From Candidatus Omnitrophota bacterium (lineage in GTDB: Bacteria; Omnitrophota; Gorgyraeia; Gygaellales; Profunditerraquicolaceae): a DNA stretch of 64,000 bases. Below the pieces are notes generated by a model. It ran no database searches. It was not told the origin of the DNA and saw only the letters and a program-made list of their open reading frames with translations. The translations under genes and the position numbers were made by a program. Location of the stretch: assembly GCA_041645145.1 (NCBI GenBank), contig JBAZQO010000001.1, positions 2,327 to 66,326 of the forward strand. Reading direction: 5' to 3'. Every line of letters begins with the position of its first letter. Within the stretch, counting starts at the first letter, position 1. Shown piece after piece: positions 47,464 to 64,000 of this stretch.

Positions 47464-48392
47464 GTTTTTGCTTCCCTTGCCTGGGCTACCAGGAATAAAA
47501 CCGCCATTCTTACGGCAATACCATTGGTTACCTGCTCTAAAATCACCGAATTTGCCCCATCCGCTACTTCGCTGGACATCTCAATCCCCCGGTTAATCGG
47601 GCCGGGGTGCATAACAACTATATCTTTTTTGGCCTTGGCTAATCTTTCTCCGGTAATCCCGAACCTCTTAAAATAATCCAGCTGCTCGGGGAATGCCGCG
47701 CCTTCATCGCGCTCAAACTGCATCCTTAAGACATTTACCGCGTCAGCGTTTTTTAAAGCCTCATCAATACTGCTGGAAGCCCTCACCCCGGTTTTTTCTA
47801 TTCCAACCGGAAGCAGCATCTCAGGTGCGCATACCGTAACATTGGCGCCTAACTTAGTCAACCCCCAGATATTAGAGCGGGCAACCCGCGAATGCGCGAT
47901 ATCACCTACGATAGTTACATTCAAGCCTTTTATTTTCCCCAGTTTTTCTTTGAGCGTAAAAATGTCCAGCAGTGCCTGGGTGGGATGCTCATGCCAGCCA
48001 TCCCCGGCATTTACCACGCTGATATCCAGCGCGCGGGCAAGCATGTTCGCCGCCCCTGAGCAGTTATGCCGCATAATAATTATATCGGCTTTTAGCGCCT
48101 GGATATTCTTCCCTGTATCAATCAAGGTCTCCCCTTTACGCACGCTGGAGGTTTCTGTTGCAATATTAATTACGTCCGCGGATAATCTTTTTGCCGCTAC
48201 TTCAAAAGAAACCCTTGTCCTGGTAGACGGCTCGTAGAAAAGATTTACCGCGGTCTTGCCGCGCAAGGCCGGGACCTTCTTGATCTCTCTTGTAGAAACC
48301 TCTTTGAAGGAATCCGCGGTATCTAAAATTAACTCAATCTCTTCTTGTGTTAAATACTCCAATCCTAAGAGATCCTTCTTTGTCCAAAACAT
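47460..48392 (-). CDS. pyrB: aspartate carbamoyltransferase catalytic subunit
   Basis: STRTR carbamoyl-phosphate motif (EPSTRTRVSFE), HPTQ, and HCLP-equivalent region. 310 aa. Confidence 0.9.
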   Translation of the reverse strand: MFWTKKDLLGLEYLTQEEIELILDTADSFKEVSTREIKKVPALRGKTAVNLFYEPSTRTRVSFEVAAKRLSADVINIATETSSVRKGETLIDTGKNIQALKADIIIMRHNCSGAANMLARALDISVVNAGDGWHEHPTQALLDIFTLKEKLGKIKGLNVTIVGDIAHSRVARSNIWGLTKLGANVTVCAPEMLLPVGIEKTGVRASSSIDEALKNADAVNVLRMQFERDEGAAFPEQLDYFKRFGITGERLAKAKKDIVVMHPGPINRGIEMSSEVADGANSVILEQVTNGIAVRMAVLFLVAQAREAKT

Positions 48393-48931
48393 TATTCCTT
48401 CTCCGCAATTAATACTTCATCACTACCATCGGATTCTTGCAAATGCACTTCCACAGATTCTTTTTTTGAAGTAGGAATATTCTTGCCTACAAAATCCGCG
48501 CGAATGGGTAACTCGCGGTGGCCGCGATCAACTAAAACTGCCAGCTGTATGGACTTAGGCCGGCCAAAATCAATTAAAGCATCTAAAGCAGCCCTGATTG
48601 TACGGCCCGTATAAAGTACATCATCAACCAACACCAGGTTTTTATTATTAATATCAAAATCTATCTCCGTCTTACGCACCAAAGGCTGGCCGCTGGCTAA
48701 AGCCAGGTCGTCACGATAAAGCGTGATATCTAACGCCCCAGTTGCAATCTCCTTGCCTTCAATCTTTTTAATGCATTCTGCCAGGCGCAAAGCGATATAA
48801 ACCCCGCGGTTCCTAATGCCTATAACGCATAACTCTGTAGTTCCCTTATTTTTCTCAATAATTTCATGCGCAATGCGCATGATCGCGCGATTAATACCTT
48901 CCTGATCTAGTATTTTAGCTTTTTCTTTCAT
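48392..48931 (-). CDS. pyrR: bifunctional pyrimidine operon regulator / uracil phosphoribosyltransferase PyrR
   Basis: PRPP-binding loop [18 protein letters not shown]-terminus [24 protein letters not shown] matches the PyrR start. The track ORF extends 30 nt further ([10 protein letters not shown]), but those codons are the attenuator poly-U tract, so the start is called at the internal ATG near 48931. Confidence 0.85.
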
Positions 48932-48942
48932 GGACTTAGGAG

Positions 48943-48974
48943 CAAAAAAAATCCGCCACATTATTTTGGCGGAT
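48943..48974 (-). terminator. PyrR-type transcription attenuator: intrinsic terminator hairpin + U8 tract in the pyrR leader
   Basis: Minus-strand RNA reads GCAUCCGCCA aaauaaug UGGCGGAU UUUUUUUU, an 8-bp GC-rich stem, 8-nt loop and U8, ending 11 nt before the pyrR ATG. Confidence 0.6.
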
Positions 48975-49150: not shown

Positions 49151-49218
49151 AAAGGGACGCTTAATTGGAGACCTTCTTATTGGCTGATAAACCTTTGGGA
49201 AGGTTAGCGTCCCTTTTA
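49151..49218 (-). terminator. long-range stem (12 bp) enclosing an inner hairpin, immediately 3' of the giant ORF stop
   Basis: aaaagggacgct ...45 nt... agcgtccctttt. The inner part has ccttc..gaagg pairing. On the minus strand it is followed by UUAUUUG. Confidence 0.45.
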
Positions 49219-52200
49219 TTGAGCTATCAATTGTGGCTCTTTAGCGAGAACCTGCACCTTTGCTAATGCCAGTCTTAATTCATTTACCGGTTTATCCGAT
49301 TCAAGTAGAACCAGGATTTCTCTTAAAGATGATTCCGTGTAACAGGCCTTTTCTTCCTCCTGCCTTAGGATATCCGCAATGCAGGCAAGAACCTTATCTA
49401 CCTGGCTATTTGGATCTTGCAAAGACAAAAGATATTCTCTTAAGCGTTCGCAGGAGGGAGCTATGCCTGAATTTGCCATCCTCTCTATCTCCTGCCATTC
49501 TTTATCAGAAACAGGGACAGGCCCCTTCGGGGACAGTCCCTGTTTTAAAGCTTTTGATGCCGCCATCGGCTGGATAACCGTATTCTTGGACAATGACCGC
49601 ATATCAATTCCGCCGACATTTTCTTCAAGTGGGCTAGCGGTCTTAGTTTTATCATATACTGCATCATATTGCTCCAGGGTGGCACCGTTGATTCTCCGCC
49701 AATGCCAACGCTCTCCTCCATCAATAATTTCCTTTGTTGGATCCTCGTAGCCATCGAAATGTGGCGCAAATCTTCCTCCAGCTCCGGTAACAACAGGCGA
49801 GGTATAAATATCACTGAACGGTTTACCTCGTTCTTCAATCTCTTTTTTTACAACTGCTTGAATAAAATTAGCAGGTATATTGTTAATACCGGATTCGCGT
49901 AAGCTTCTTACTTCTTTTTTCTTTCTCTCAATATATTCCAACTTCAAAATTTCTCCTTCTTGTCGAATATGCGTATAGACAGCTACACTATTATTAACAA
50001 CTCCAAAATATAGTTTTCCGCCTGTTGATGGCCTAATTAAAGCCAATGCCTGGTCATATTGTTTGCCCGACAATTCTCCAAGTAGACTGATTTCAATTTC
50101 ATTGTCATTTGCGGCGATAGCAACATCTTGCCCAAGCTGTTGCTCTAGGCTAGCAGATCGATCTTGCGTGGCAACCGGCGAGCCGGCTGACTCACCGTAT
50201 ATGCGTTTCTCAGTATAATTATACTTCTGGCCATCATTTAGGCTGCCAACTTTTTCTTTTAACCTCCAGAAATCGCCATTTACCGGATTTATGATATTTT
50301 CGTAGAGATCCTTTATTTGTTCGTCATTTTGACAGGAAAAAAATGCTCTGCGATTTTTCACATATCTTGCATCGTTCCCCCAATAATACTCTAATGACAA
50401 ATATAACTTAATCAGACGGCTATAATATGCTCCTTCGGGATTTTTGGTAACATCAATGAGGCTGTTTAAGTCGGTTTTTAGTATGGCTATTTGGTTCAGG
50501 ATTACTTGCTCGCGTTGCCCCGAAGAATGAAGCCAGTTTACGACCTGGATATTTATGTCCATGTTGTCAGCCAATCCCGATATCCCCATGGAACTAACTG
50601 ATTGTTTAATTTTATCGGATAATTCGCGCTTGAACCCAAATTCCTCGCCTCGTTTTGCCCAGGGCACAGCAATATCTATATCTCTGATAGAATCTAGGGG
50701 CACCAACCCCGATTCATCCGCCAAATATCTGGCGCTGCCTACCAAGACAGCATCGCTACCTGCAGCTTCCTTCAACATAGATTCAAATAATCTTATGTTC
50801 AACCAAATGCTCCCGTCTTCTTTAGCTATAGTTAATCCGCTAACAGGAGAACTGGCGGGCTTGCCTGCAACCGGCGAGCCGGCGGATTGCTGCTGCATCC
50901 GACCAGCTATTACTTCTCCATAATTATTTTTAATCCAGGACAATATGTAATCCCTTCGATGTTTCAAGGTGTCTTGCAAATAAGTCCGGTCAACTCTGCT
51001 CATGCGTATACTATCCACTAAGGTGTTAATAGCGTCATCAGTTAGCCGTGTTTTTAAAACCGCTCCTTGTTCAATAATATCTTTTGGGGTTAGTCCATAT
51101 GCTTCATAGGCCTGGCGCATACCATAGCCTAATCTCTCAAAATTATCACCTCTTTCGAGTTCTCGAACGGGAGCCTGTGGCCCAAACAAATCTTTGTCCT
51201 TTCTTTGTCCGCGTGCACGGAAAAGTAGTGCGCCTCCATTATCTATCCTATAGAGCAACCCTCCGGAAATCAATGTATTGCGATCTATAGCGTAAGGAAT
51301 ATCCCAGTTAGCCATTAAGGTATCTGCCAAAAATCCATGGATAACCAGCTGCTTATGTGCCTCGAGAGTAGCTGTCATGTCAAGGGGCAATATCCTAGAG
51401 GCATGCCCATAGTTTCCGGCGACTTTAACGATTTTTGTTTCAGGAACAGGGATTCCGAGAACTCTGTACAACTTATTTGCCAAATCCTCTACCCAAATAT
51501 GTGACTCCTCTTCATGCTGGGCAAACTTCACATAATATGGTGAAGGACCGCTATCTGTAGGAACGGTGAATTCTGCTCCGGGATTGCTTCCTTTTTGTTC
51601 GCCTGTCTTTAGAGAATAATCCCATACTTCAACTGGAACTGAATAGTTGAAGTTTGAACGGATAGAATCATATTCATCAGCGCTGAATAATAACGTTCCT
51701 TGCAAATTATAAAGAGGAATATAAAAGCCATTTTCTACAATTGCTCTCTTGACCTTTTCCAATGTCTTATCGGGACTACGCAAGACGATTGATGCTATCT
51801 CAGTTGCTGGCATTCCTCCTAAAAGTAGCGAGTGATGAGAAGAAGGCCCATACTCTTTCCCTTCCTCCCAACATCCCTTTCCGCGATGATATACATACCA
51901 TAACTGACCATCTGACCCTAATAAACCTCTACCCCCATAACCGTTTGAAAGTGATGCGGTGATAATACGCTCCGTCTCCTGGTGCAGCCCTATAAAATCC
52001 CGCGTAAGACGGGTGAAATCTACATGGAATGGATATGAATCGGTTGTCGCTCCTTCACCCAATGCCTCTCTAGGAAGATTGCCGTTTCTAAGCACAGATT
52101 CAAGGACATCAACTGTCGAACCATGCAAATAATCTCCGTCTTGCAAACTTAATTTCTTAATGACGACTTGCCGGTTTCGTGCATCTGCTTCGGCTTTACT

Positions 52201-55200
52201 TTTCTCGTCCTGACTTGTTTCTATTGTTTGTTTTAAATAGTGCCGAAAAATCCACGGCTTATAGTCAGTTTCCAGTTCCGAAAATGGAATAGAATGAATT
52301 TGTCCAGACTCTAGCTGGGTAATCAAGGACTGATTAACAACTATGCCCTCTAATCGCGTCTTTGTGTTCGGATTGTTCTGTTTAGCCGCTATATGTTCTG
52401 CGACAATATCAGTCAAAGGAACAACTGTCCCATCTTCAAATGCTATCTCAGTTAACGGATACTCAGACGCAGCAGATCTTAATTGCGAACCAAGCCGCGT
52501 CTCAGCAAAAAGAAACAATTGCTGCCAATACGCTGTGGGCTTCGTAAATATTGATTCAATTACCTGGGCTCTAGCTACCGCATTATCATTGGAGAAAATA
52601 TCCTGCATGATAAGCATGCGGTTTTCATGTAAAGGGCCACCAACTTGCAAAAGACTAAAAAGATTTGGTGCGTATTCCGATAGAGATACGATTTCATTAA
52701 TCTTGTCTGGCCTGCGCGCCAGATATGCCAACACAGCTTTATCTAAATAAAAATCTTGATGTACGTATAACTTCCCGTTCGGCTCAAAAAGATTCATAAG
52801 CAACATCTGTACGGCTTTATTAAATAAAACATGGTGCTTCTCGTCCGCTGTCCTGTAATCCCACCTTGCTTTCAATTGATAATCAGTAGAGCCTAACCAC
52901 TTCAAGATTCCATTAGTTAACGCCTGCGATAGAAAACCCTGCGCTTGCTGGATTGTATAGAGATGATAAAAGAACGGCCGTAGGCCTTCATTCCTATTAG
53001 CGTAAAATCGCATCAAATTCTCATACGGATCTATAATAAAAATCCTATCGTAGCCTCTCGGGCTATCCTTATTGTTTTCTATTTCATAAAATAAGTGGTA
53101 CTGAAAATCGGGGGATATCTTTTTAATTTCGTAAAGCGCACTGATTATGTCGGCTTTTTGTTCATATATCCCTGGCAAAATCTTATAATGCTCAATAGAG
53201 AACAAGTATCCAAGGGGTCTCAAATCTTCTATGCATTGTACAATTTCATCTCGGTTAGCTAACATAATATACTGTTTAAGATATTCAGGATCATAGAAGC
53301 CCCCATATCCGGTTTCATAGATATCGCGGACTCTTTTAAGAAATGAAATTGTTTTTTTCAAGGCCTGAATCTTTTGTCTAGTGGAAGCGTGAGGAGGAAA
53401 ATAATCATCCCCTAAAGCGGGGATGAATAAACTAATCTCGGAGTCTGCAATACCCTCCTTTTCTATAGTAGCCAAAAACATCTGGGGTGCAAGAGCACGG
53501 ATTTTCTCCTGCAGGTAATCTGGCACATGTGTGAAACTACGCAGGACGACCTCCACAGCGGCAAAGTTATTCGGATCATCGAAGTATCGTGATTTAAAGA
53601 CGACCATGTCTAAAAGCTCTGCCTGCAACCGATGATTACGCGAAGTCCGTAAAATATCTTCCATAATTGCGTATCCTAGGCTCAAATTTACATCCTTGAG
53701 GCGCTCGAGAAGCGCCATAACAAAAAACTGTTTAGCTTCATTATATCCTCCTCTCCCATCTCTCTCCCGGAGGAAAGTTATACACATCTCTGCTAAATTT
53801 TGCTTAATTTGCTTATAAATAGGATTGTCTACAAGAGATGCGGACATTGTTCTATCCTTAACAATACCTGGCTGCATACCGATATCTTTACAGGCGCTCT
53901 CAATCGCTTCCCGCAAAGATAAAACTGTGTCTCTTCTTCCTATTTCCCAAATTGTCTCCTCTCTGCCTTCTTGATAAGCAAACATTAACTCATCAAATTT
54001 GTCTATGTTAGGAGAAAAATACCTTTTCTCAAACGCTTCTTTTAATCGTTTCCATTCAGGATTGTCAATCATCAACGCGCTATAAGTATTAGGGTGAGTG
54101 CGTACTGTCTCAATGATTTCTATTAAACCCGGGATATTTTTCTGCTTTAAGGTAATTCGTTCGCTTTCAGTCAGAGACAATATGAAATAGGTCACCCGCC
54201 CTGGGAGAAAAGGATACTCTCCTGAATAGCCCGGCTCTCTCCAAGAATTCATAATAATTAAAGGTGCCAATTCTACTTTTAATCCCGGGCTTTCTTCTGC
54301 TAACCAGAATAATCGATATCCTAAGTCGATTGATTCATTTGTATGTTCTTTTTCCTCAAGCAGATCATTAACCGTTCGCTTAGCAAGTGTTCGCTCAAGC
54401 GCATCGAACGTATAGTCGCCAAACATACTTTTGATTTTAGGGTTAGCCTTGAATGTACTCCAGCGTTGCTTGAAGCTTTCATTTATAAAATGATCTTTAA
54501 GAATTGCTTTAGGCATCAATGAGATATCCAACGGCAAATTCTCTCGGTGTTCGCTAATATGCCGTTCAACATTGGCCGTGATATTTCCTGATCCTATCCG
54601 GATAAATTCTTTTCTCATTGTATTTTGTTTAGCTTCGCTTTGGCCTAATGTGTCTCTGATTATTTCTTTTACTTGGTTCACCAAAGATATGGGTAAATTT
54701 TCCGCTTCAAGAGCATTGATAAAACTCAAGAGCAATTCATGCGCATGTTGTCTTATCAATAAATCGGTTATTCTCCCATATGCTTTATCTTGGTCGCCCC
54801 GTTGTAGACCGATCTGTCCGCCTAATTCACTTAGTTTAAAACTACACTCTCGATTTAATTCATCGAGCCTGTTATTCCGCTGGCGAACGCGATCGCTCTC
54901 TTCCTGGCTTCCCCCCCATCCACTATATATTGCGGCAATTCCTTCTCTTAGCTGTTCTCTTGCAAGCGCCAAGTACTCCTTGGCCTGCTCAGGAGTTATA
55001 TTTCCTTTTCGCTCTAACTCACGAAGCCCCGGCATTATTTTCTTATCTATCAATTCTTCATTTAATTCTGCGTATAAGCTATCATTATTTACTAAAGACT
55101 CTTCCGCCCGAGTATATTTTGCCAAAACCCCAGTTATAATGCTCTTTATTTTATCAAGATATTCCACACATTTATCGTCCATTTCGTTTTGCAACGACTC

Positions 55201-56853
55201 TGTTCTTGAGTTGAGCTGATTAATCTCATTGGCGATTTCTTGTTTCTTATTTTCTAACTGCAACTGGAGAGTATCAATTTCTGACTGCATTCGTGTTATA
55301 TTTTGCTTTGTGTCTTTTCGCATCCCCCAACTCTTGAACCAAATCAACCAGGGCTTATTTTTTTCATCACGCAAAATCTGTTTTTCCTTTTCTATATTAC
55401 CTTGGATTTCTTCTATTTTTGTTTTAGATATAAAATCTGCCTGTTCTCTTTGTTTTATCAAGATAGCTATTCTCTGTTCACGTGCTTTCTTCTCTTGTTC
55501 TAATCCTTTAATTCTTTCTTTAAGCCCAGCAATGTTTATTAGATCATTTTTAAAAACCGCTTCTATCTCTATGCCGATAGTACCTAAGGGAAAACTGGTC
55601 GACTTGGACTGTAAAGTCGCCGACGAGCTGGCGGCGGGCGGCTGCTCAACCGCAGATGAAGCTAGCTCTGTTTCCCCATCAAAAGGATTGCTTACAATAC
55701 CACCTTTAAATTTAAAGCCTAATCCATATGGCCGAATTAACGCCTTAGCATCTCTCCGCAGTACAAGTCCTTGCGTAATCGCTGAAGATACTGATGCCAA
55801 AGCAATGCCACCACTCATATAGCTCCTGATAGTCTGACCATAGGGAGTGTAGCGCGGCTCTTTAATGTTATATTCTCCTTGCTGGAAAGAAGCTTTGTAG
55901 GCATTAAAGTAAGTTGTTTTAGACCAAGAGGTTTTGGAGGTTAAACCAGTCAGGTTGTGTCTGTCTATGAGGTAGGGATATACGCCTGATTTACCGTAGA
56001 ATTTCTGTTTAAACCACTGCGCCAGGATAAGTGAATAGTAAACCTGCCTTAAGGGAGCGTATCTTTTGGAGGAATTAATTTCTTTGGTTAACTTAGGAAT
56101 AATGGTTTCTCTGATGAGTTGTGAGGAGTATTCGTTCAGAGCTTTGGAGCGCTCATCCTTGAAATTATAGGTAGATGAATCCTTAAGATAGTCTTGCTCA
56201 AGCATGACCTTCAGCGTGGCTTTGTAGATGTAAGCATTGTCAGAGCTCTCTCTGATGATGATTTCATCCGGGACTATCCATGGACGAGTGAGCGTAGGAA
56301 TGGTTATATTTTCAGAACCGTAGAGCTCTTCTGCTTTCTTGTAAAGCTTGTCCCAATAGTCTTTTCCTTCTAGAGTTTGGGGGGAGGTAAAATTAGCGGT
56401 ATCTTTCTTTAGCTGGAGGTCTGCCTCAAGCAGAATCTTTCCTACGTCAGTTTCGCCCAGTTCGCTATCTATAATGTTGTCTTCTGCATCTGGCCTTAAA
56501 TTTACCCAAAAGGCTTCATTGGGCAAGGATATGCCGATGAAAAAATAATTGAGCAGGGTTTTGGTTTCTTGTTGCAAACTCTCCTTAGGGTCAGTTCCCT
56601 TCGGGGACAGACCCTTCACAAAATCTCCTTTGTCTAGAAGCAGATTAAAGTTGTTGACGCTTGGGTCATAAGAGAGGTACCTTAAATGAAGAGGCCGGAA
56701 TCTGTCCTGAATGAAGCTATTTCGCAGGGCAAGAAAATGGCTTGAGAGATCCAACTCTCCGGCAATTTGGGCAAAGCCGGATTGCTCAAATACCATGAAA
56801 AAACATATGGCAATAGCAATGATTTTAAATAATTTACTAGATTTAATCTTCAT
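49216..56853 (-). CDS. giant secreted/surface protein (2545 aa), largely alpha-helical with coiled-coil segments; contains an atypical kinase-like motif region
   Basis: Signal peptide MKIKSSKLFKIIAIAICFFMVFEQSGFAQIA. Heptad-rich region around residues 430-560. Low-complexity linkers (PPAASSSATLQS; GESAGSPVA twice). Region ~1700-1790 HGFLADTLMANWD...LLYRIDNGGALLFRARG has the D-x4-N ... D-x-G spacing seen in protein-kinase-like folds. Confidence 0.6.
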   Translation of the reverse strand: MKIKSSKLFKIIAIAICFFMVFEQSGFAQIAGELDLSSHFLALRNSFIQDRFRPLHLRYLSYDPSVNNFNLLLDKGDFVKGLSPKGTDPKESLQQETKTLLNYFFIGISLPNEAFWVNLRPDAEDNIIDSELGETDVGKILLEADLQLKKDTANFTSPQTLEGKDYWDKLYKKAEELYGSENITIPTLTRPWIVPDEIIIRESSDNAYIYKATLKVMLEQDYLKDSSTYNFKDERSKALNEYSSQLIRETIIPKLTKEINSSKRYAPLRQVYYSLILAQWFKQKFYGKSGVYPYLIDRHNLTGLTSKTSWSKTTYFNAYKASFQQGEYNIKEPRYTPYGQTIRSYMSGGIALASVSSAITQGLVLRRDAKALIRPYGLGFKFKGGIVSNPFDGETELASSAVEQPPAASSSATLQSKSTSFPLGTIGIEIEAVFKNDLINIAGLKERIKGLEQEKKAREQRIAILIKQREQADFISKTKIEEIQGNIEKEKQILRDEKNKPWLIWFKSWGMRKDTKQNITRMQSEIDTLQLQLENKKQEIANEINQLNSRTESLQNEMDDKCVEYLDKIKSIITGVLAKYTRAEESLVNNDSLYAELNEELIDKKIMPGLRELERKGNITPEQAKEYLALAREQLREGIAAIYSGWGGSQEESDRVRQRNNRLDELNRECSFKLSELGGQIGLQRGDQDKAYGRITDLLIRQHAHELLLSFINALEAENLPISLVNQVKEIIRDTLGQSEAKQNTMRKEFIRIGSGNITANVERHISEHRENLPLDISLMPKAILKDHFINESFKQRWSTFKANPKIKSMFGDYTFDALERTLAKRTVNDLLEEKEHTNESIDLGYRLFWLAEESPGLKVELAPLIIMNSWREPGYSGEYPFLPGRVTYFILSLTESERITLKQKNIPGLIEIIETVRTHPNTYSALMIDNPEWKRLKEAFEKRYFSPNIDKFDELMFAYQEGREETIWEIGRRDTVLSLREAIESACKDIGMQPGIVKDRTMSASLVDNPIYKQIKQNLAEMCITFLRERDGRGGYNEAKQFFVMALLERLKDVNLSLGYAIMEDILRTSRNHRLQAELLDMVVFKSRYFDDPNNFAAVEVVLRSFTHVPDYLQEKIRALAPQMFLATIEKEGIADSEISLFIPALGDDYFPPHASTRQKIQALKKTISFLKRVRDIYETGYGGFYDPEYLKQYIMLANRDEIVQCIEDLRPLGYLFSIEHYKILPGIYEQKADIISALYEIKKISPDFQYHLFYEIENNKDSPRGYDRIFIIDPYENLMRFYANRNEGLRPFFYHLYTIQQAQGFLSQALTNGILKWLGSTDYQLKARWDYRTADEKHHVLFNKAVQMLLMNLFEPNGKLYVHQDFYLDKAVLAYLARRPDKINEIVSLSEYAPNLFSLLQVGGPLHENRMLIMQDIFSNDNAVARAQVIESIFTKPTAYWQQLFLFAETRLGSQLRSAASEYPLTEIAFEDGTVVPLTDIVAEHIAAKQNNPNTKTRLEGIVVNQSLITQLESGQIHSIPFSELETDYKPWIFRHYLKQTIETSQDEKSKAEADARNRQVVIKKLSLQDGDYLHGSTVDVLESVLRNGNLPREALGEGATTDSYPFHVDFTRLTRDFIGLHQETERIITASLSNGYGGRGLLGSDGQLWYVYHRGKGCWEEGKEYGPSSHHSLLLGGMPATEIASIVLRSPDKTLEKVKRAIVENGFYIPLYNLQGTLLFSADEYDSIRSNFNYSVPVEVWDYSLKTGEQKGSNPGAEFTVPTDSGPSPYYVKFAQHEEESHIWVEDLANKLYRVLGIPVPETKIVKVAGNYGHASRILPLDMTATLEAHKQLVIHGFLADTLMANWDIPYAIDRNTLISGGLLYRIDNGGALLFRARGQRKDKDLFGPQAPVRELERGDNFERLGYGMRQAYEAYGLTPKDIIEQGAVLKTRLTDDAINTLVDSIRMSRVDRTYLQDTLKHRRDYILSWIKNNYGEVIAGRMQQQSAGSPVAGKPASSPVSGLTIAKEDGSIWLNIRLFESMLKEAAGSDAVLVGSARYLADESGLVPLDSIRDIDIAVPWAKRGEEFGFKRELSDKIKQSVSSMGISGLADNMDINIQVVNWLHSSGQREQVILNQIAILKTDLNSLIDVTKNPEGAYYSRLIKLYLSLEYYWGNDARYVKNRRAFFSCQNDEQIKDLYENIINPVNGDFWRLKEKVGSLNDGQKYNYTEKRIYGESAGSPVATQDRSASLEQQLGQDVAIAANDNEIEISLLGELSGKQYDQALALIRPSTGGKLYFGVVNNSVAVYTHIRQEGEILKLEYIERKKKEVRSLRESGINNIPANFIQAVVKKEIEERGKPFSDIYTSPVVTGAGGRFAPHFDGYEDPTKEIIDGGERWHWRRINGATLEQYDAVYDKTKTASPLEENVGGIDMRSLSKNTVIQPMAASKALKQGLSPKGPVPVSDKEWQEIERMANSGIAPSCERLREYLLSLQDPNSQVDKVLACIADILRQEEEKACYTESSLREILVLLESDKPVNELRLALAKVQVLAKEPQLIAQ

Positions 56854-56948: not shown

Positions 56949-57602
56949 CTAAATGACTATTACAAATTCACCGCGGGGTTTTTGTTGCCGGAATTCTTCT
57001 AACAGAAGCTGGGGGTTAGCGCGTCTTATTTCTTCAAATTTTTTAGTCAATTCCCTGGCGCAGACTATCTCTTGTTCGCCAAAGACTTCCTTGATATCCT
57101 GGAGGGTTTTTAGAATACGGTGGCAGGATTCATAAAAAACTAAGGTGCAGCCAATCTTTTTTAGCCTTTCCAGCTGGTTTTTGCGCGCCTGAGAGCGATT
57201 CGGAAGAAACCCGGCAAAGAAAAATTCATGAGCTGGCTTCCCGGAAAGCACGAGGGCATTTATAAAAGCCGCGGCTCCCGGGATAAAAGTCATTTCCAGA
57301 TTATTTTTTATCGCCAGATTAATCAGGTTATAGCCAGGATCAAGTATGCCAGGCGTGCCGGCATCAGAAACCAAGGCAACATTTTTGCCTGCTTGCAACA
57401 GGCCGATAATATATGCGCCTTTGCTGAATCTGTTATGCTGATAAAAGCTTGTAGTAGGGGTTTTGATGCCGTAATGTTGGAGCAGGATTTTGGTATGCCG
57501 GGTATCTTCACAGGCAATTAAATCTACATTTTTTAAAACCTCGATTGCCCGCAAAGTTATATCTTTTAAATTCCCTACCGGCGTGGCGACAATATAAAAC
57601 AT
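56949..57602 (-). CDS. rsmI: 16S rRNA (cytidine1402-2'-O)-methyltransferase RsmI (tetrapyrrole-methylase fold)
   Basis: MFYIVATPVGNLKDITLRAIEVLKNVDLIACEDTRHTKILL is the canonical RsmI N-terminus. Its start abuts the glmS stop. Confidence 0.75.
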   Translation of the reverse strand: MFYIVATPVGNLKDITLRAIEVLKNVDLIACEDTRHTKILLQHYGIKTPTTSFYQHNRFSKGAYIIGLLQAGKNVALVSDAGTPGILDPGYNLINLAIKNNLEMTFIPGAAAFINALVLSGKPAHEFFFAGFLPNRSQARKNQLERLKKIGCTLVFYESCHRILKTLQDIKEVFGEQEIVCARELTKKFEEIRRANPQLLLEEFRQQKPRGEFVIVI

Positions 57603-59437
57603 TATTCCACGGTTACTGATTTAGCGAGGTTGCGCGGTTGGTCCACGTCGCATCCGCGTTTTACTGCGATATGGTATGCTAATAACTGCAGCGGCAATAC
57701 TACCAGGAGAGGAGAAAACAGCTCCTCGCATTTAGGGATATAAATTACCTCTGCGGTCAGCTCCTTGATATTAGAATCTCCATCAGTGGCAATAGCAATG
57801 ATTTTGCCGCGCCGGGAGCGGATCTCCTGGATGTTGGAAGCCATCTTTTCATATACCTTGGACTCCGGGGTAATGCAGACCACGGCGCGGTATTCATCAA
57901 TTAAAGCGATGGGGCCATGCTTCATCTCTCCGGCGGCATAACCTTCTGCCGGGATATACGAAATTTCTTTTAATTTCAGCGCCCCCTCCAAAGCTGACGG
58001 ATAATTTATATTTCTACCTAAATACAAAAATGAACCAAAATGCGAATGCCTGCGGGATAAACGGGCAATGTCATCCTGTTCTTTAAGGATCGCCGCCTGC
58101 TTCTTAGGTATACCTCTTAACTCTTCGAGTAATTTATTTATTTTATTCTGTGGGATTATATCGCGCACCTCTGCCAGATACAAGGCAAATAAATAAATCG
58201 CGGCCAGCTGCGCAGTATAGGCCTTAGTAGATGCAACCCCGATTTCCGGGCCGGCGTGGGTATACATCACCCCGTCTGATTCGCGGGTTAAGGTTGAGCC
58301 CAGGACATTACATATAGAAATTACCGAAGCGCCCAGCTTTTTCGCCTCCCTGATTCCTGCCAGAGTATCCGCGGTCTCGCCGGACTGGCTGATCGCCAAT
58401 ACCAGGGTATCCTTATCAATAAGCAGGTCCCGATAACGGAATTCGCTTGAAACATCTATATGCGTGGGTATTTTACAGAGGGATTCTAAGGCATATTTGC
58501 CTACCAGGCCCGCATGATAAGCTGTGCCGCAGGCAACGATAAAAATACTCTTTATGCTTTTCAACTTTTCAAGCGGGATATCCTGCTCCTGGAAAAGAAT
58601 GCCGTTGTCGTTTTGTATCCTCAGGCCGAGCAGGTCCTCGATGATCTTAGGCTGCTCATTAATTTCTTTGAGCATAAAATACTTATACCCCTGCTTCTGC
58701 GCCTGCTCAATATCCCAGTTGAGCCGCACTGCCTCCCTGATTACTGTCTTGCCGTTAAGATCCGTTATTTTGCAGCTGTTTTTGCTTAACACCACCACCT
58801 CGTTCTCATCCAGGAAAATTATATCTTTGGTGTGTTCAAGGATTGCCGGAGCATCCGAGGCAAGAAAATTCTCATTTTCCCCTATTCCTATTATCAAAGG
58901 GCTTCCTGAGCGAGCGCCGACCAATTTTCCTGGCTCACGCTTAGCGATAACCGCAATGGCAAAAGAACCGGTGACTAATTTCAGGGCTTTGCGCACCGCG
59001 TCTTCTAATGGAATATTTTTATAAAACTTCTCGATAAGATGCACGATGACTTCGGTATCAGTCTGGCTGCGAAAGACATGCCCCTCCTTAAGCAGCTGCG
59101 CTTTAAGGGGCTCGTAGTTTTCGATTATTCCGTTATGCACAAGCGCTATTTCATTTTCACAGTCAGTATGCGGATGGGCATTATTTTGGGTAGGCGCGCC
59201 ATGGGTAGCCCAGCGGGTATGCGCAATGCCTACTGTTCCTGCAAGGGGTTTTGATTTAAGCAATTTATCCAGGGCGCTGATCTTACCGGGAGACTTTCTG
59301 ACAGAAGGAGTGTTTTTAGCGGGGAGAATAACGGCTATACCGCTGGAATCATAACCGCGGTACTCCAGGCGCTTAAGGCCAGTCAAGAGTATTTCTTGCG
59401 CTGGCCTTTCACCGATATATCCGACTATTCCGCACAT
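57602..59437 (-). CDS. glmS: glutamine--fructose-6-phosphate aminotransferase (isomerizing)
   Basis: MCGIVGYIG catalytic Cys2 N-terminus. The start is called at this internal Met; the track ORF carries a spurious 30-codon leader. Two SIS domains and C-terminal ...SVTVE. Confidence 0.9.
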   Translation of the reverse strand: MCGIVGYIGERPAQEILLTGLKRLEYRGYDSSGIAVILPAKNTPSVRKSPGKISALDKLLKSKPLAGTVGIAHTRWATHGAPTQNNAHPHTDCENEIALVHNGIIENYEPLKAQLLKEGHVFRSQTDTEVIVHLIEKFYKNIPLEDAVRKALKLVTGSFAIAVIAKREPGKLVGARSGSPLIIGIGENENFLASDAPAILEHTKDIIFLDENEVVVLSKNSCKITDLNGKTVIREAVRLNWDIEQAQKQGYKYFMLKEINEQPKIIEDLLGLRIQNDNGILFQEQDIPLEKLKSIKSIFIVACGTAYHAGLVGKYALESLCKIPTHIDVSSEFRYRDLLIDKDTLVLAISQSGETADTLAGIREAKKLGASVISICNVLGSTLTRESDGVMYTHAGPEIGVASTKAYTAQLAAIYLFALYLAEVRDIIPQNKINKLLEELRGIPKKQAAILKEQDDIARLSRRHSHFGSFLYLGRNINYPSALEGALKLKEISYIPAEGYAAGEMKHGPIALIDEYRAVVCITPESKVYEKMASNIQEIRSRRGKIIAIATDGDSNIKELTAEVIYIPKCEELFSPLLVVLPLQLLAYHIAVKRGCDVDQPRNLAKSVTVE

Positions 59438-59579
59438 TTGAGCACACTCCTGGGCTTGCCTAACGGCAAGCCCATTTAGCGAAATCCCGACGAATGCTGC
59501 AAAATTTTGGAACAAAATTTTGCGCATCTTATGAGTCGGGAGTGGCTACCTGTAATCCCTAAAACGCCGGCAAATTTAA

Positions 59580-59654
59580 TGACCCTGACGGGATTTGAAC
59601 CCGTGTCGAGAGCTTGAAAAGCTCTTGTCCTAGACCAGGCTAGACGACAGGGTC
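59580..59654 (-). tRNA. tRNA-Glu (anticodon TTC)
   Basis: Reverse complement reads GACCCTGTCGTCTAGCCTGGTCTAGGACA AGAGC TTTTCAA GCTCT CGAC ACGGGTTCAAATCCCGT CAGGGTCA. Anticodon loop TTTTCAA gives TTC. The D-arm TCGTCTAG...GGAC is typical of tRNA-Glu. No CCA. Confidence 0.8.
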
Positions 59655-59659
59655 GGAAT

Positions 59660-62600
59660 TTACTCTTCCTCCTCGGCGATTACCGGGGCAACGCAGGAAA
59701 CCCGGTCTTTATCCTGCAGCTTAATCAACCGAACACCTTGCGCTGAACGACCGGTTTCACGGATATCCTTTATGGCGCAGCGCAAGAATATGCCATTTTG
59801 AGTAATTACCATAAGCTCATCATTGTCATTTACGGTCTTTAAATTTACTGCCTGGCCGTTCTTATCCGTAACCTTAATATTGATCACCCCTTTGCCGCCG
59901 CGGCTGGTTAAGCGATACTCATCAATGGTGGTGCGTTTTGCAAAACCCAATGCCGTAACCGTCAATATTGTAGAATCCTTTTGCGGGACAACCATATCGA
60001 TAACTTCGTCCTTTTTAGCCAGAGATATCGCGCGCACGCCATGCGCCCCCCTGCCCATATCGCGCACATTTTCCTCAGAAAATCTTATGGCCTTACCTTG
60101 CCTGGTCCCGATAAGCAGTTCCTGTTTTCCGTCGGTCATCTCCACGCCGATCAACGCGTCATCCTTATCTAAGGTAATCCCGATAATCCCGCCTTTGCGC
60201 GGATTACCATAAGCCTCTAGCTTAGTTTTCTTAATTTGCCCCAGCTTAGTCACCATGACCAAATATTTATCCGGTGAAAAATCCTTAACCGGAATAGTAG
60301 AGCTAATTTTCGCTACCTGCTCCATCTGCACCAAATTCACAATAGCCTTGCCCTTAGAGACACGGCTAGCTTGGGGTATCTCATAAACCTTTAGCCAGTG
60401 CACCTGTCCTTTATCTGTAAAAATCAAAAGGTAGTCTTTGGTAGAAGCCACAAAAAGATGTTCACTAAAATCTTCCTCTTTTAAATCCGCTCCGGTTGCC
60501 CCTGTGCCCCCGCGTTTTTGCTTACGGTATGCGCTTACCGGCAGGCGCTTAATATAGCCACCATGACTAATTGTCACCACTACATCCTCATCGGCAATTA
60601 AATCCTCAACCTCCAACTCTTCTGCTTCACCCACTATATCTGTACGCCTTTGGTCACCATATTTTTTCTTTAAATTATCCAGCTCTTCCTTAATAATCCC
60701 TTCAATTTTTTTATCCGAACCTAAGATCGCCCGGCAGATTTCAATTTTCTTTAAAAGCTCGGCATACTCCGCGTCAATTTTATCGCGCTCAAGAGCAGTT
60801 AAGCGCTGCAACTGCATTTCAAGAATTGCCTGCGACTGCAACTCCGAAAGCTCAAACTCCTTCATTAAGTTTACCTTGGCCGCCTCAACACTCTTAGAGG
60901 TCTTAATGACTTTGATAATCCGGTCAATAAACTTAAGCGCTATCTTTAAACCTTCTAAAATATGCGCGCGCCTTAAAGCCTTGTCTAATTCAAACTGGGT
61001 GCGTCGGCGGATAACAATCTTGCGATGCTCAATATAACAATCTAATACCTGGCGTAAATTTAATACCCTGGGCCGATTATCCACCAGAGCCAGCATAATA
61101 ATGCCAAATGTGGTTTCCAGTTGAGTATGTTTAAAAAGTTGATTCAAAACAATCTGGGATTCGATATCACGCTTAAGTTCAACCACAATGCGCATGCCAT
61201 CCTTATCAGATTCATCGCGGATATCAGATATGCCTTCAATTTTTTTATCATCAACCAAAGCCGCAATAGCTTCAATAAGCCCCGATTTCTGCACCTGATA
61301 AGGAATTTCAGTAATAATAATTAAATCTTTGCCATTCTTTTGATGCTCTACAGTTGCCCGGGAACGTATGAGTAATTTACCTCTTCCGGTAGTATACGCA
61401 TCTTTAATCCCCGCCTTGCCGCAGATTAATCCTCCAGTAGGAAAATCCGGCCCTTTTACATAACGCATCAGGTCCTTAATCTCTGCCTCGGGGTGATCAA
61501 GTAGATAAATAATGGCATCACAAACTTCATTTAAATTATGCGGCGGTATATTGGTGGCCATGCCCACGGCAATACCGCTTGAGCCGTTGACTAAAAGATT
61601 GGGAAGGCTCGCCGGTAAAAGTAAAGGCTCCTTTAAAGAAGAATCAAAGTTCGGACCAAAATTAACGGTTTCTTTTTCAATATCACCAAGCATCTCTTCA
61701 GAAACCGCAGCCAGGCGGGCCTCGGTATTATGACTTATGAATCCATTGGATACAAATGAGTGACATGGACTATCCACTTTAATTGAATAGACTCTTTTCT
61801 TACCGGCATCTTCTATCGAAACAATTTTATCAAAGATATATCTATTTTTTATCAAACCCTCAAACAAACTAACATCGTCTTTATCAAGAGCCCTTCTTAG
61901 CCTAGGCCAGTATTTTTCTATTTTTGGGTACCTATCGATGTTGTGTTTTTTTAGCCATTCTATGTTCCCCCAATATTTTCTCCTGCACCGTGTGCTTTTT
62001 TTACGAATATAGTCGGCGATGTAGGGAATAAAATCTGTCTTGGACATAGCCCAATCAGTTTTATTGCGATTACAAATATCTATCAGCCTTTCACGACTTT
62101 TCTTGGTAGCAAAATTTATTTGATTTTTAAATAAATCGAGATTATTGCGGCCTCTAATAAACAACCTAAAATAGTTTTTTTGCTTATGAAATCTATGCGA
62201 AGAATCGATGCCAAACATTAGCAGAAAAACTTGTAAACCTTGAATCAATTTTCCGCTGGTTGATATCAAGCTAACATCGGGGTTTCTCTTGCCAACACAA
62301 ATACTACCATCTCCCTCCGCATAACCTTTTATAAATGCAGCAACCGATTTTTTCGAGGAAGAAAAAATTATATCTGGAATGGTTTTATCATAAGCTCGCA
62401 ACTGGCGTAACCCTAGATTTTTCAAAAAATCTATAACATGCATTGAATGAATTTCTAAATAAGTACACTTCTTTTTCCCATAACCCAATGGTTTTCTTAC
62501 AAATTCATGCAGCCTGCAATCGGGGAATACTCGCTGGAAGCACGATTTAAATTCCCGTAGAAACTCTTTATCCCCATTACAGAATCCAATTTGTTCTTTG

Positions 62601-63415
62601 CTAATAGAACCTTCTGAAATTAGCGCTCCCAAAATAAAGGCCAGATCTGCATTCATAGCGCGAGGGAGTTTATGACCCTGCCTTCTGTTTCGAAGTTCTG
62701 GATAAAATTTCTTTAATAAAGGTTCCCTTGAAGGGAATAACAAACCGCTCCTGCTGACTACGACAAAATCGCCATTTTCTACATTATTCAATAGTGTCCA
62801 AACTAATTTTGGCTTTGTTCCATTGCGTTGCCACGTTAAAATAGGATGATTCAGGCTCCCGCATAAGCTAAAACCTCTAAAGGTAGTAATTTTTTTAGTT
62901 AAATGCTCTCCGGAATCAAACCATTTTGAAACATGATTTATCTTATTATTGCATGAAAGTACTCGAAAATCTGTTTTGGAATGATGGGGCAGCTCGTCTA
63001 TTCTTTGCAGTCCTTTATCTGTAACAATCAGGGCGTCGCCGGTGACGCAGTATCTCATCGCCGCAGCTGCGTCCCCGTCGACCGATCCGAAATTTCCTTG
63101 ACCATCCACGAGCGGATAGCGCAGGGAAAAATCTTGTGCCATGCGCACCAGGGTATCATAAATAGCCACATCACCATGTGGATGATACTTACCCATGGTT
63201 TCACCGACAATACGCGCACATTTCTTATAAGGCTTAGAGTGTTCGAGATTAAGCTCCTGCATTGCGTAAAGAATTCTGCGATGCACCGGCTTTAACCCGT
63301 CGCGCACATCAGGCAGGGCTCGACCGACAATTACGCTCATTGCATAATTCAAATAGGAGTCTTTAACCTCGTCCTCAATATAAACCGGAATTATTTTTTC
63401 GTTGCGTGTATACAT
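59660..63415 (-). CDS. gyrA: DNA gyrase subunit A interrupted by an in-frame intein (1251 aa precursor; ~810-aa mature GyrA)
   Basis: The N-terminus has the GyrA-box region through ...[10 protein letters not shown] (catalytic Tyr). Canonical GyrA resumes at [10 protein letters not shown].... C-terminal beta-pinwheel repeats and acidic tail are present. Confidence 0.9.
61727..63049 (-). mobile_element. GyrA intein (441 aa) with LAGLIDADG homing-endonuclease domain, inserted directly after the active-site Tyr
   Basis: Starts CVTGDALIV (Cys1, block A). Ends ...[11 protein letters not shown] (block G His-Asn), followed by extein Thr+1. Two LAGLIDADG motifs ([14 protein letters not shown]; [14 protein letters not shown]). 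Coordinates +/-2. Confidence 0.8.
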
Positions 63416-63416
63416 A

Positions 63417-64000
63417 TTAAATATCCAAATTCTTTACTTGATGCGCGTAATCTTCTATAAATTGACGGCGCGGCTCAACCTGGTCACCCATTAAAACCGT
63501 AAACATCTTATCCGCCGCAACCGCATCCTCTAAGATCACCTGTAAAATCGTTCTTTTTTCCGGATCCATAGTAGTATCCCAAAGCTGACGTGGATTCATT
63601 TCACCCAGGCCTTTGTATCTTTGGATGTGCATGCCTTTTGTCGCCACTTCTTTAATATACACCAGAACCTCTTTTAAACTAAAAACCTCTTTTGCGTCCT
63701 CTTCATTAGTAATGCGGTAAACTGCCTTTAATTTTTTCTCCCCTTCTTTAACTGTGCCGGCCTTAGGAACTATAATGCCGCTAAAATAAGTTTCAATCCC
63801 CAGGCCGAGTTTTTCAATCTTAGCTACTACCTCCTCAACCTCCTGAGATTCAAAGAGCTGCAAAACATCCTGCTCTAACCCTTTACCTTCTTGCTCAGTG
63901 AGGGCAGCAAGTTCTTTATCAGAATATAGAAAATGGTCTTTTCCATCCACTTTTACCCTATAAACTGGCATTTTTTTGGTCTTTTGGTGCCTAAAACCCA
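63417..64000 (-). CDS. gyrB: DNA gyrase subunit B, C-terminal part (5' end beyond window)
   Basis: Ends with the conserved GyrB C-terminus ...[27 protein letters not shown]...[13 protein letters not shown]. The frame stays open to position 64000. Confidence 0.85.

Follow-up and report, generated by a model that had tools for sequence, protein, structure and literature searches.

A LAGLIDADG intein following the catalytic tyrosine of gyrA in an Omnitrophota bacterium, with signs of recent movement between lineages

Why is the gene for DNA gyrase subunit A (GyrA) of a Candidatus Omnitrophota bacterium about 440 codons too long? We examined this gene in a 64,000-nucleotide (nt) stretch of contig JBAZQO010000001.1 (the window), where gyrA lies at 59660..63415 on the minus strand as a single unbroken open reading frame (ORF) of 1251 codons, encoding a GyrA precursor. 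A first-pass annotation had noted the surplus, beginning with a Cys after AAAAMRY and ending in His-Asn before Thr-EARL. These boundaries are correct to the residue. The insert comprises precursor residues 123-563, exactly 441 amino acids (aa); its first residue is a Cys right after ...GDAAAAMRY, and its last residues, ...NGFISHN, are followed by TEARLAAV. Very probably, the insert is a class-1 intein of full length that belongs to the gyrA-a family and lies in the single gyrB-gyrA operon; both splicing and homing are predicted for it. The gene is divided into the following parts, the exteins being the flanking portions of the host protein.

59660..63415, minus strand: gyrA precursor ORF, 1251 aa plus stop (Pfam, NCBIfam and relatives)
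63050..63415, minus strand: N-extein, GyrA residues 1-122, ending in ...AAAAMRY (alignment)
63050..63052, minus strand: codon of Tyr122, the catalytic DNA-cleaving Tyr and residue -1 of the predicted intein (aligned to E. coli GyrA Tyr122)
61727..63049, minus strand: predicted intein, 441 aa, 51.2 kDa, isoelectric point (pI) 9.9 (Pfam, homology and AlphaFold2 model)
61724..61726, minus strand: codon of Thr+1, precursor residue T564, the predicted second nucleophile, GyrA T123 once spliced (alignment)
59660..61726, minus strand: C-extein, GyrA residues 123-810 plus stop, with the rest of DNA_topoisoIV and the six-bladed C-terminal domain (Pfam)

Pfam recognized DNA_topoisoIV in two stretches of the precursor, together with six GyrA C-terminal blades, two LAGLIDADG_3 domains, and Intein_splicing. 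The NCBIfam gyrA equivalogs TIGR01063 and NF004043 were passed, again in two stretches each. When the insert was removed in silico, the resulting 810-aa GyrA aligned without gaps over the junction to E. coli GyrA (3nuh), with Tyr122 on Tyr122, and was also gap-free at the junction against solved GyrA structures; the exteins rejoin to a continuous active-site motif, as comparison with intein-free GyrA had been expected to reveal. The length of 810 aa matches that of intein-less homologues (808-813 aa, with few exceptions, for the full-length proteins among the 120 closest GyrA sequences). The GC content is 36.5% for the insert versus 44-47.5% for the exteins. Antisense ORFs in this region (e.g., 62981..63295 and 61512..61733 on the plus strand) were rejected as shadows of the long minus-strand gene.

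What kind of element is the insert? Both halves of its Hint domain match the GyrA mini-intein of Mycobacterium xenopi (Mxe) (1am2; E = 1.3e-19; residues 2-103 and 389-441), and its middle matches the endonuclease part of VMA inteins (7qsu; E = 5e-12). Pfam LAGLIDADG_3 (PF14528) is found in two stretches (E = 3e-18). Matches of this strength lie well outside what chance would produce. Genome and metagenome scans identified six further loci with a 441-aa intein at the same gyrA codon, with aa identities to the window intein of 96% (L008), 94% (L001), 93% (L009), 92% (L010), 78% (L011), and 71% (L002). All six have the gyrB-gyrA-tRNA-Glu neighbourhood wherever the contig extends far enough. We prepared a block alignment of 12 environmental gyrA inteins and Mxe, the sequence of the latter agreeing with the 1am2 match except for visible chain differences, and counted invariance over 18 aligned relatives. 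Splicing blocks A, B, F, and G and endonuclease blocks C, D, and E are conserved across the 12 gyrA inteins and Mxe. The first-pass annotation had proposed to look for the splicing blocks, with a lack of B or F speaking against an intein; all four are present in the window.

63011..63049, minus strand: block A, with Cys1, the predicted first nucleophile, invariant in the 18 aligned relatives (alignment)
62831..62860, minus strand: block B, G64-S-L-N67-H68-P, with S65, N67 and H68, equivalent to T72-x-N74-H75 of the Mxe GyrA intein
61742..61795, minus strand: block F, VYSIKVD426-SPC-H430-SFVSNG, with D426, C429 and H430 (alignment)
61727..61741, minus strand: block G, FISHN, with penultimate H440 and terminal N441, Thr+1 being next (alignment)

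Within block B, all aligned relatives share H68 and nearly all share N67. The Tyr-Thr junction is common to all 15 gyrA-hosted relatives from which inteins were extracted. All the tests that we ran support the proposal of a LAGLIDADG intein at the gyrA site next to the Tyr122 equivalent, akin to mycobacterial GyrA inteins. The two LAGLIDADG-type motifs that had been reported along with it were found at intein aa 136-150 and 236-250, and the region between the Hint halves is organized as follows.

62114..62674, minus strand: LAGLIDADG homing-endonuclease core, about intein aa 126-312, two alpha-beta-beta-alpha-beta-beta-alpha halves (Pfam and model)
62600..62644, minus strand: LAGLIDADG motif 1 (block C), aa 136-150, ...ALISE146-G147, with predicted catalytic E146 (alignment)
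62363..62389, minus strand: endonuclease block D, DKTIPDIIF, with K222 and invariant P225 and I228 (alignment)
62300..62344, minus strand: LAGLIDADG motif 2 (block E), aa 236-250, YAEGD247-G248, with predicted catalytic D247 (alignment)
61841..62113, minus strand: helical region, about aa 313-403, between the endonuclease core and the C-terminal Hint strands (alignment and model)

G147 and D247 are invariant in the aligned relatives, and G248 is nearly so. The helical region is conserved in gyrA inteins, and its last part is kept in the Mxe GyrA mini-intein. An AlphaFold2 model built with 18 sequences had a mean predicted local distance difference test (pLDDT) score of 89.8 and a predicted template modelling (pTM) score of 0.91, the sole low-confidence loop being at aa 355-361; it predicts a pseudo-dimeric alpha-beta-beta-alpha-beta-beta-alpha secondary structure for residues 134-310. 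The top Foldseek match for this model in the PDB was TliVMA (E = 3e-24), then PI-PfuI, PI-PkoII, PhoVMA, and PI-SceI; further down came the Mxe GyrA intein (template modelling [TM] score, 0.82 over the target), single-chain LAGLIDADG enzymes of the I-DmoI type, and I-Tsp061I. The ratio of nonsynonymous to synonymous substitution (dN/dS) was 0.15 versus L001 and 0.08 versus L002 for the whole intein, and 0.10 and 0.07, respectively, for its endonuclease and linker part. These low ratios, together with the intact acidic residues, fit an endonuclease that is functional now or was until very recently.

How could an essential gene carry such an insert? The precursor would be made as one 1251-aa chain in which the catalytic Tyr122 is bonded to Cys1 of the intein. 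An N-S acyl shift at Cys1, aided by S65, N67, and H68 of block B, would be followed by transesterification onto Thr+1, by cyclization of Asn441 to a succinimide, aided by H440 and the block F residue H430, and finally by an O-N shift (residue roles as reviewed in PMC7765530). Splicing is predicted to yield a 90.5-kDa GyrA of 810 aa, its ...MRY-TEARL... site normal, and the free, basic intein. Since the intein is bonded to the catalytic Tyr, the unspliced precursor is expected to be inactive, and splicing would therefore be obligatory for viability. We infer splicing from the intact catalytic residues and the essentiality of gyrA. Once freed, the intein would be a single-chain LAGLIDADG endonuclease with E146 and D247 as catalytic residues. 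Its predicted target is intein-less gyrA, cleaved at the codons of Tyr122/Thr123 or close to them; with an intein-bearing copy as the repair template, the cut allele would then acquire the intein. The intein-less gyrA site of locus L004 reads GACGCAGCCGCGGCTATGCGTTAT up to the insertion point and ACCGAGGCGCGCCTGGCTGCG beyond it, and in L004 and L005 the longer reading is ...GACGCAGCCGCGGCTATGCGTTAT and then ACCGAGGCGCGCCTGGCTGCGGTT...

Has the element moved? We compared the divergence of intein and host gene by the codon-based Nei-Gojobori method, using our own script. Between the window and L001, the inteins are 94.5% identical at the nt level (synonymous divergence [dS], 0.18), compared with 83.0% for the exteins (dS, 1.39); 73 of 1323 intein positions differ versus 413 of 2430 extein positions (Fisher p = 5e-26). 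The corresponding values for the window and L008 are 95.9% (dS, 0.14) and 77.1% (dS, about 3). Across all pairs of the window, L001, L008, and L009, the inteins are 89-96% identical (dS, 0.14-0.46) and the exteins 76-83% (dS, 1.4 to saturated). The flanking genes gyrB and glmS are 77% and 71% identical, respectively. Moreover, the window extein is nearer to the intein-less gyrA of L004 and L005 (dS, 0.96) than to any intein-bearing one (L001; dS, 1.39). An artefact of constraint, whether from composition, an antisense ORF, or RNA structure, was considered as the source of the low intein dS and was ruled out by the divergence of L002 and L011: since the intein dS versus these two loci is about 1.3-2.8, near the divergence of the host genes, silent sites in the intein are free to change. 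The element also keeps its own base composition, without adopting that of its host (GC content of 34-37% for the inteins of the window, L001, L002, L008, L009, and L011; 44-52% for the exteins). These data point to the intein alone having moved, several times, between Omnitrophota lineages that were already diverged, and recently relative to the divergence of those lineages.

The step in identity coincides with the ends of the intein. Averaged over the six pairs of four hosts, third-codon-position identity is 0.86 in the intein and only 0.41 over the 60 nt that open the C-extein; in the N-extein, the 60 nt nearest the intein reach 0.69 and the remainder 0.54. Identity on the C side falls from 0.93 to 0.72 exactly at the junction. 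The co-conversion tract, a weak signal, thus extends for no more than about 60 nt on the N side, and there is none on the C side. Homing driven by an endonuclease, with very short co-conversion tracts, would be expected to leave just such a pattern. It is about as likely as not that the intein is an active homing element at present, spreading among Omnitrophota species.

Several observations weigh against an intact and active intein. We infer splicing and endonuclease activity from conserved residues and selection, and the low dN/dS at short distances could partly mean that there was too little time for decay. Block B has a Ser where most inteins have a Thr, a conservative difference common to 11 of the 12 environmental gyrA inteins. 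The generic models for intein termini sit right at their cut-offs: TIGR01445 (N-terminal) scored 24.6 bits with the intein alone and 21.2 bits with the full protein (cut-off, 24.5), and TIGR01443 (C-terminal) scored 15.5 and 16.2 bits, respectively (cut-off, 15.6). PF14890 (Intein_splicing) passed narrowly, with 36.9 and 38.5 bits (cut-off, 35.8), such that each of these three models reached its cut-off, barely, in one context or in both. NF038098 (GyrA_w_intein), which NCBIfam provides for GyrA proteins with an intein, scored 1223.8 bits, below its cut-off of 1850, with an end-to-end alignment (8-1246 on 2-1227 of 1232). That score rules out membership in this narrowly trained model; the window GyrA is a homologue, a diverged relative of the NF038098 training sequences. 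When IMG/VR was scanned with the intein, no close relative turned up on viral contigs. Lastly, the intein of L010 (L010:3001-4323) has an in-frame stop at codon 113 (Lys113 in the window).

L010 derives from Hainich groundwater and has about 4x coverage. We set its stop codon aside as a sign of decay because L009, from a replicate sample of the same site, is intact and otherwise identical, and because coverage is so low. A sequencing error or a rare variant probably accounts for the stop, which, were it genuine, would cut short an essential gene. Inactive endonucleases are nonetheless common among natural inteins as a consequence of the homing cycle, and the L010 stop could be counted as an example. 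The window intein would then still splice with a dead endonuclease, at a late stage of the cycle, its copies having been inherited or passively moved. We regard this explanation as unlikely. The two catalytic acidic residues are intact and invariant, as is block D, and dN/dS for the endonuclease part is about 0.10. Furthermore, near-identical copies in synonymously saturated hosts, with edges at the intein ends, need several recent site-specific invasions.

Ordinary homologous recombination of gyrA between species (e.g., by transformation), without endonuclease-driven homing, could draw on the highly conserved extein around the site, and the slightly raised identity in the last 60 nt of the N-extein is in its favour. 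However, recombination tracts would not stop within about 60 nt of both edges in every pair of the four hosts, the C-side fall lies exactly at the junction, and the rest of gyrA, gyrB, and glmS is without such tracts. We therefore consider this origin very unlikely and retain homing as the better account of the transfers.

How widely is the intein distributed? The 120 closest GyrA proteins, mostly named Candidatus Omnitrophota or Omnitrophica, have 87-97% aa identity over the first 489 spliced residues, and none of them has an intein or a LAGLIDADG domain; their names place the window in an Omnitrophota genome. The suggestion that the intein could be a lineage marker was not borne out, since it is absent from these 120 proteins, its phylogeny conflicts with that of the host gene, and the data point to recent horizontal homing. 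For annotators, this means that intein presence is unusable as a taxonomic character in this clade. Besides Omnitrophota, gyrA-a inteins occur in metagenome-assembled genomes (MAGs) labelled Woesebacteria, Acidobacteriota, Hydrogenothermaceae, and Nanoarchaeota. A genome survey (PMC4760082) detected inteins in 24% of the bacterial species covered and listed 50 from GyrA, their hosts being Actinobacteria, Aquificae, Chloroflexi, and Proteobacteria. The 24% figure and the MAGs from several phyla run counter to the view in the first-pass annotation that, apart from a few phyla, bacteria seldom have inteins. The literature that we searched contained nothing relevant on inteins in Omnitrophota or Omnitrophica. 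Public pipelines name such proteins "DNA gyrase subunit A," with the intein Pfam domains recorded.

This distribution also bears on the possible co-option of the intein as a conditional switch on gyrase activation, responding to redox or another signal, possibly by way of Cys1 and Cys429. The site adjoins the catalytic Tyr, so the precursor should be inactive, and of the 12 environmental gyrA inteins, 10 have Cys429 beside the block F His and two, like Mxe, have Asp there. Conditional splicing has been described for other replisome inteins (PMC7360933). Against this, most close relatives do without the intein, and the pattern of distribution and divergence is typical of a selfish element. We consider a regulatory role distinctly improbable. 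That the insert is non-functional, as an assembly chimera or a disrupted gyrA pseudogene, is scarcely credible even given the metagenomic source and an intein GC content unlike that of its surroundings, for the frame is open for 1251 codons with all catalytic residues retained, an identical protein is called on ENA contig ERZ27249422 k141_1008950 (which may not be independent of the window's assembly), this gyrA is the sole copy seen in the conserved dnaA-dnaN-gyrB-gyrA-tRNA-Glu-glmS neighbourhood, and, as stronger evidence than the ENA contig, six further loci bear a 441-aa intein at the same codon.

One related GyrA fragment, P0022, contains two inteins: a mini-intein after GQGNFG (CFTADTKV...VFVHN, then SIDGD) and, 17 residues downstream of it, a gyrA-a LAGLIDADG intein. 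The gene therefore has a second intein site.

We considered viruses as vectors for the window intein and rejected them, as IMG/VR yielded cousins and no close copy. A profile scan gave 223 distant stretches confirmed by tblastn, the best 80 of which (L012-L091) are 22-31% identical and mostly span all 441 residues. Three relatives found by protein search (P0031, P0032, and P0033; 27-29% identical) sit in non-gyrase hosts that Pfam cannot name. Full-length relatives at 22-31% identity, both P0031-P0033 and those on many viral contigs, keep the layout of Hint, LAGLIDADG, and helical linker. With distant relatives present and close ones absent, phages carry cousins of the window intein and not the window intein itself; the wider intein family may have a reservoir in phage genomes.

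The genes next to gyrA resemble those of its relatives. The gyrA ORF starts 1 nt past the gyrB stop, likewise in intein-less relatives.

63417..63971, upstream of gyrA: gyrB C-terminal fragment (Pfam DNA_gyraseB_C)
59580..59654, minus strand: tRNA-Glu(UUC), directly downstream of gyrA and followed by glmS

In each of the six related loci that we scanned, whether the intein is there or not, the tRNA gene is kept directly 3' of gyrA. Gene order in relatives is rpmH / dnaA-dnaN-(DciA-like)-gyrB-gyrA-tRNA-Glu-glmS, which places the right-hand end of the window a few kilobases from the likely replication origin. The glmS ORF (57602..59527, minus strand) is listed from an upstream ATG and has 641 aa, compared with 611-612 aa in relatives; because GlmS needs Cys as its first mature residue, and given the length of the relatives, the true start is probably the Met of MCGIVGY at 59440. 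Farther along, a 2545-aa ORF (49216..56853, minus strand) has an N-terminal signal-peptide-like segment (MKIKSSKLFKIIAIAICFFMVFEQSGFAQ) and a GC content of 41.5%, near that of the window; it has no Pfam or NCBIfam match and no internal repeats. It sits between a TP_methylase gene (56949..57602) and a PyrR-like phosphoribosyltransferase gene (48392..48961), and is also present on ENA contig L007. These two neighbours are adjacent, 229 nt apart, in the syntenic intein-less loci L004 and L005; the 2545-aa gene is therefore an insertion in the window lineage or was lost in the others.

Since the 1990s, inteins have been known from this site of GyrA, the gyrA-a family having first been described in mycobacteria, and the Mxe GyrA intein has become a standard tool of biotechnology. 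For these reasons the element itself is not groundbreaking. It is unsurprising to a specialist, save for an unusually clean signature of recent homing between species in an uncultivated phylum. It extends the gyrA-a family to Omnitrophota, as one of many uncultivated lineages over which the family is spread, and the contrast of near-identical inteins with saturated host genes cleanly illustrates, in nature, how the homing cycle runs through its invasion phase. The intein can serve as a tracer of DNA flow between uncultivated species. As a full-length, apparently intact protein, it is a candidate for a new site-specific endonuclease and for a Thr+1 splicing domain in protein engineering. If the intein is indeed spreading actively, this would imply ongoing DNA exchange between species of groundwater and sediment Omnitrophota, a phylum without genetics, and a LAGLIDADG endonuclease with a new specificity, one directed at those codons of gyrA that are most conserved.

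The closest known systems are the mycobacterial GyrA inteins (Mxe, 1AM2 and 4OZ6; M. leprae, M. kansasii, and M. gastri), which occupy the same host protein at the same site after the catalytic Tyr and have Cys1, Thr+1, and terminal His-Asn in common with the window intein. The full-length alleles of M. leprae, M. kansasii, and M. gastri carry LAGLIDADG endonucleases. Mxe can be aligned with the window residue by residue in blocks A, B, F, and G, including GTANHP with GSLNHP in block B and VYSLRVDTADHAFITNGFVSHN with its counterpart in the window intein, and 1am2 is a structural match to the window model (TM score over the target, 0.82). In contrast, Mxe has lost its endonuclease and has 198 aa instead of 441, the sequence similarity being limited to about 155 Hint residues; it has Thr where the window has Ser in block B, and Asp where the window has Cys before the block F His. 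The mycobacterial hosts are Actinobacteria, whereas the window host belongs to Omnitrophota. The archaeal and yeast VMA and PI-type inteins with solved structures (TliVMA and PhoVMA, 7QSS, 7QSU, and 7QST; PI-PfuI, 1DQ3; PI-PkoII, 2CW7; PI-SceI, 1VDE and 1LWS) likewise have a Hint domain split by a single-chain LAGLIDADG endonuclease and match the window model with Foldseek E values of 3e-24 to 1e-11. They differ in host gene and target, are only 9-20% identical to the window intein, and are unlike it in the helical region at aa 313-403, which is particular to gyrA inteins. I-DmoI (2VS7) superposes on the window endonuclease core at 3.0-3.6 Å over about 194 columns, and both have two LAGLIDADG helices with one catalytic acidic residue each; unlike the window intein, I-DmoI is intron encoded, has no splicing domain, and recognizes an unrelated target.

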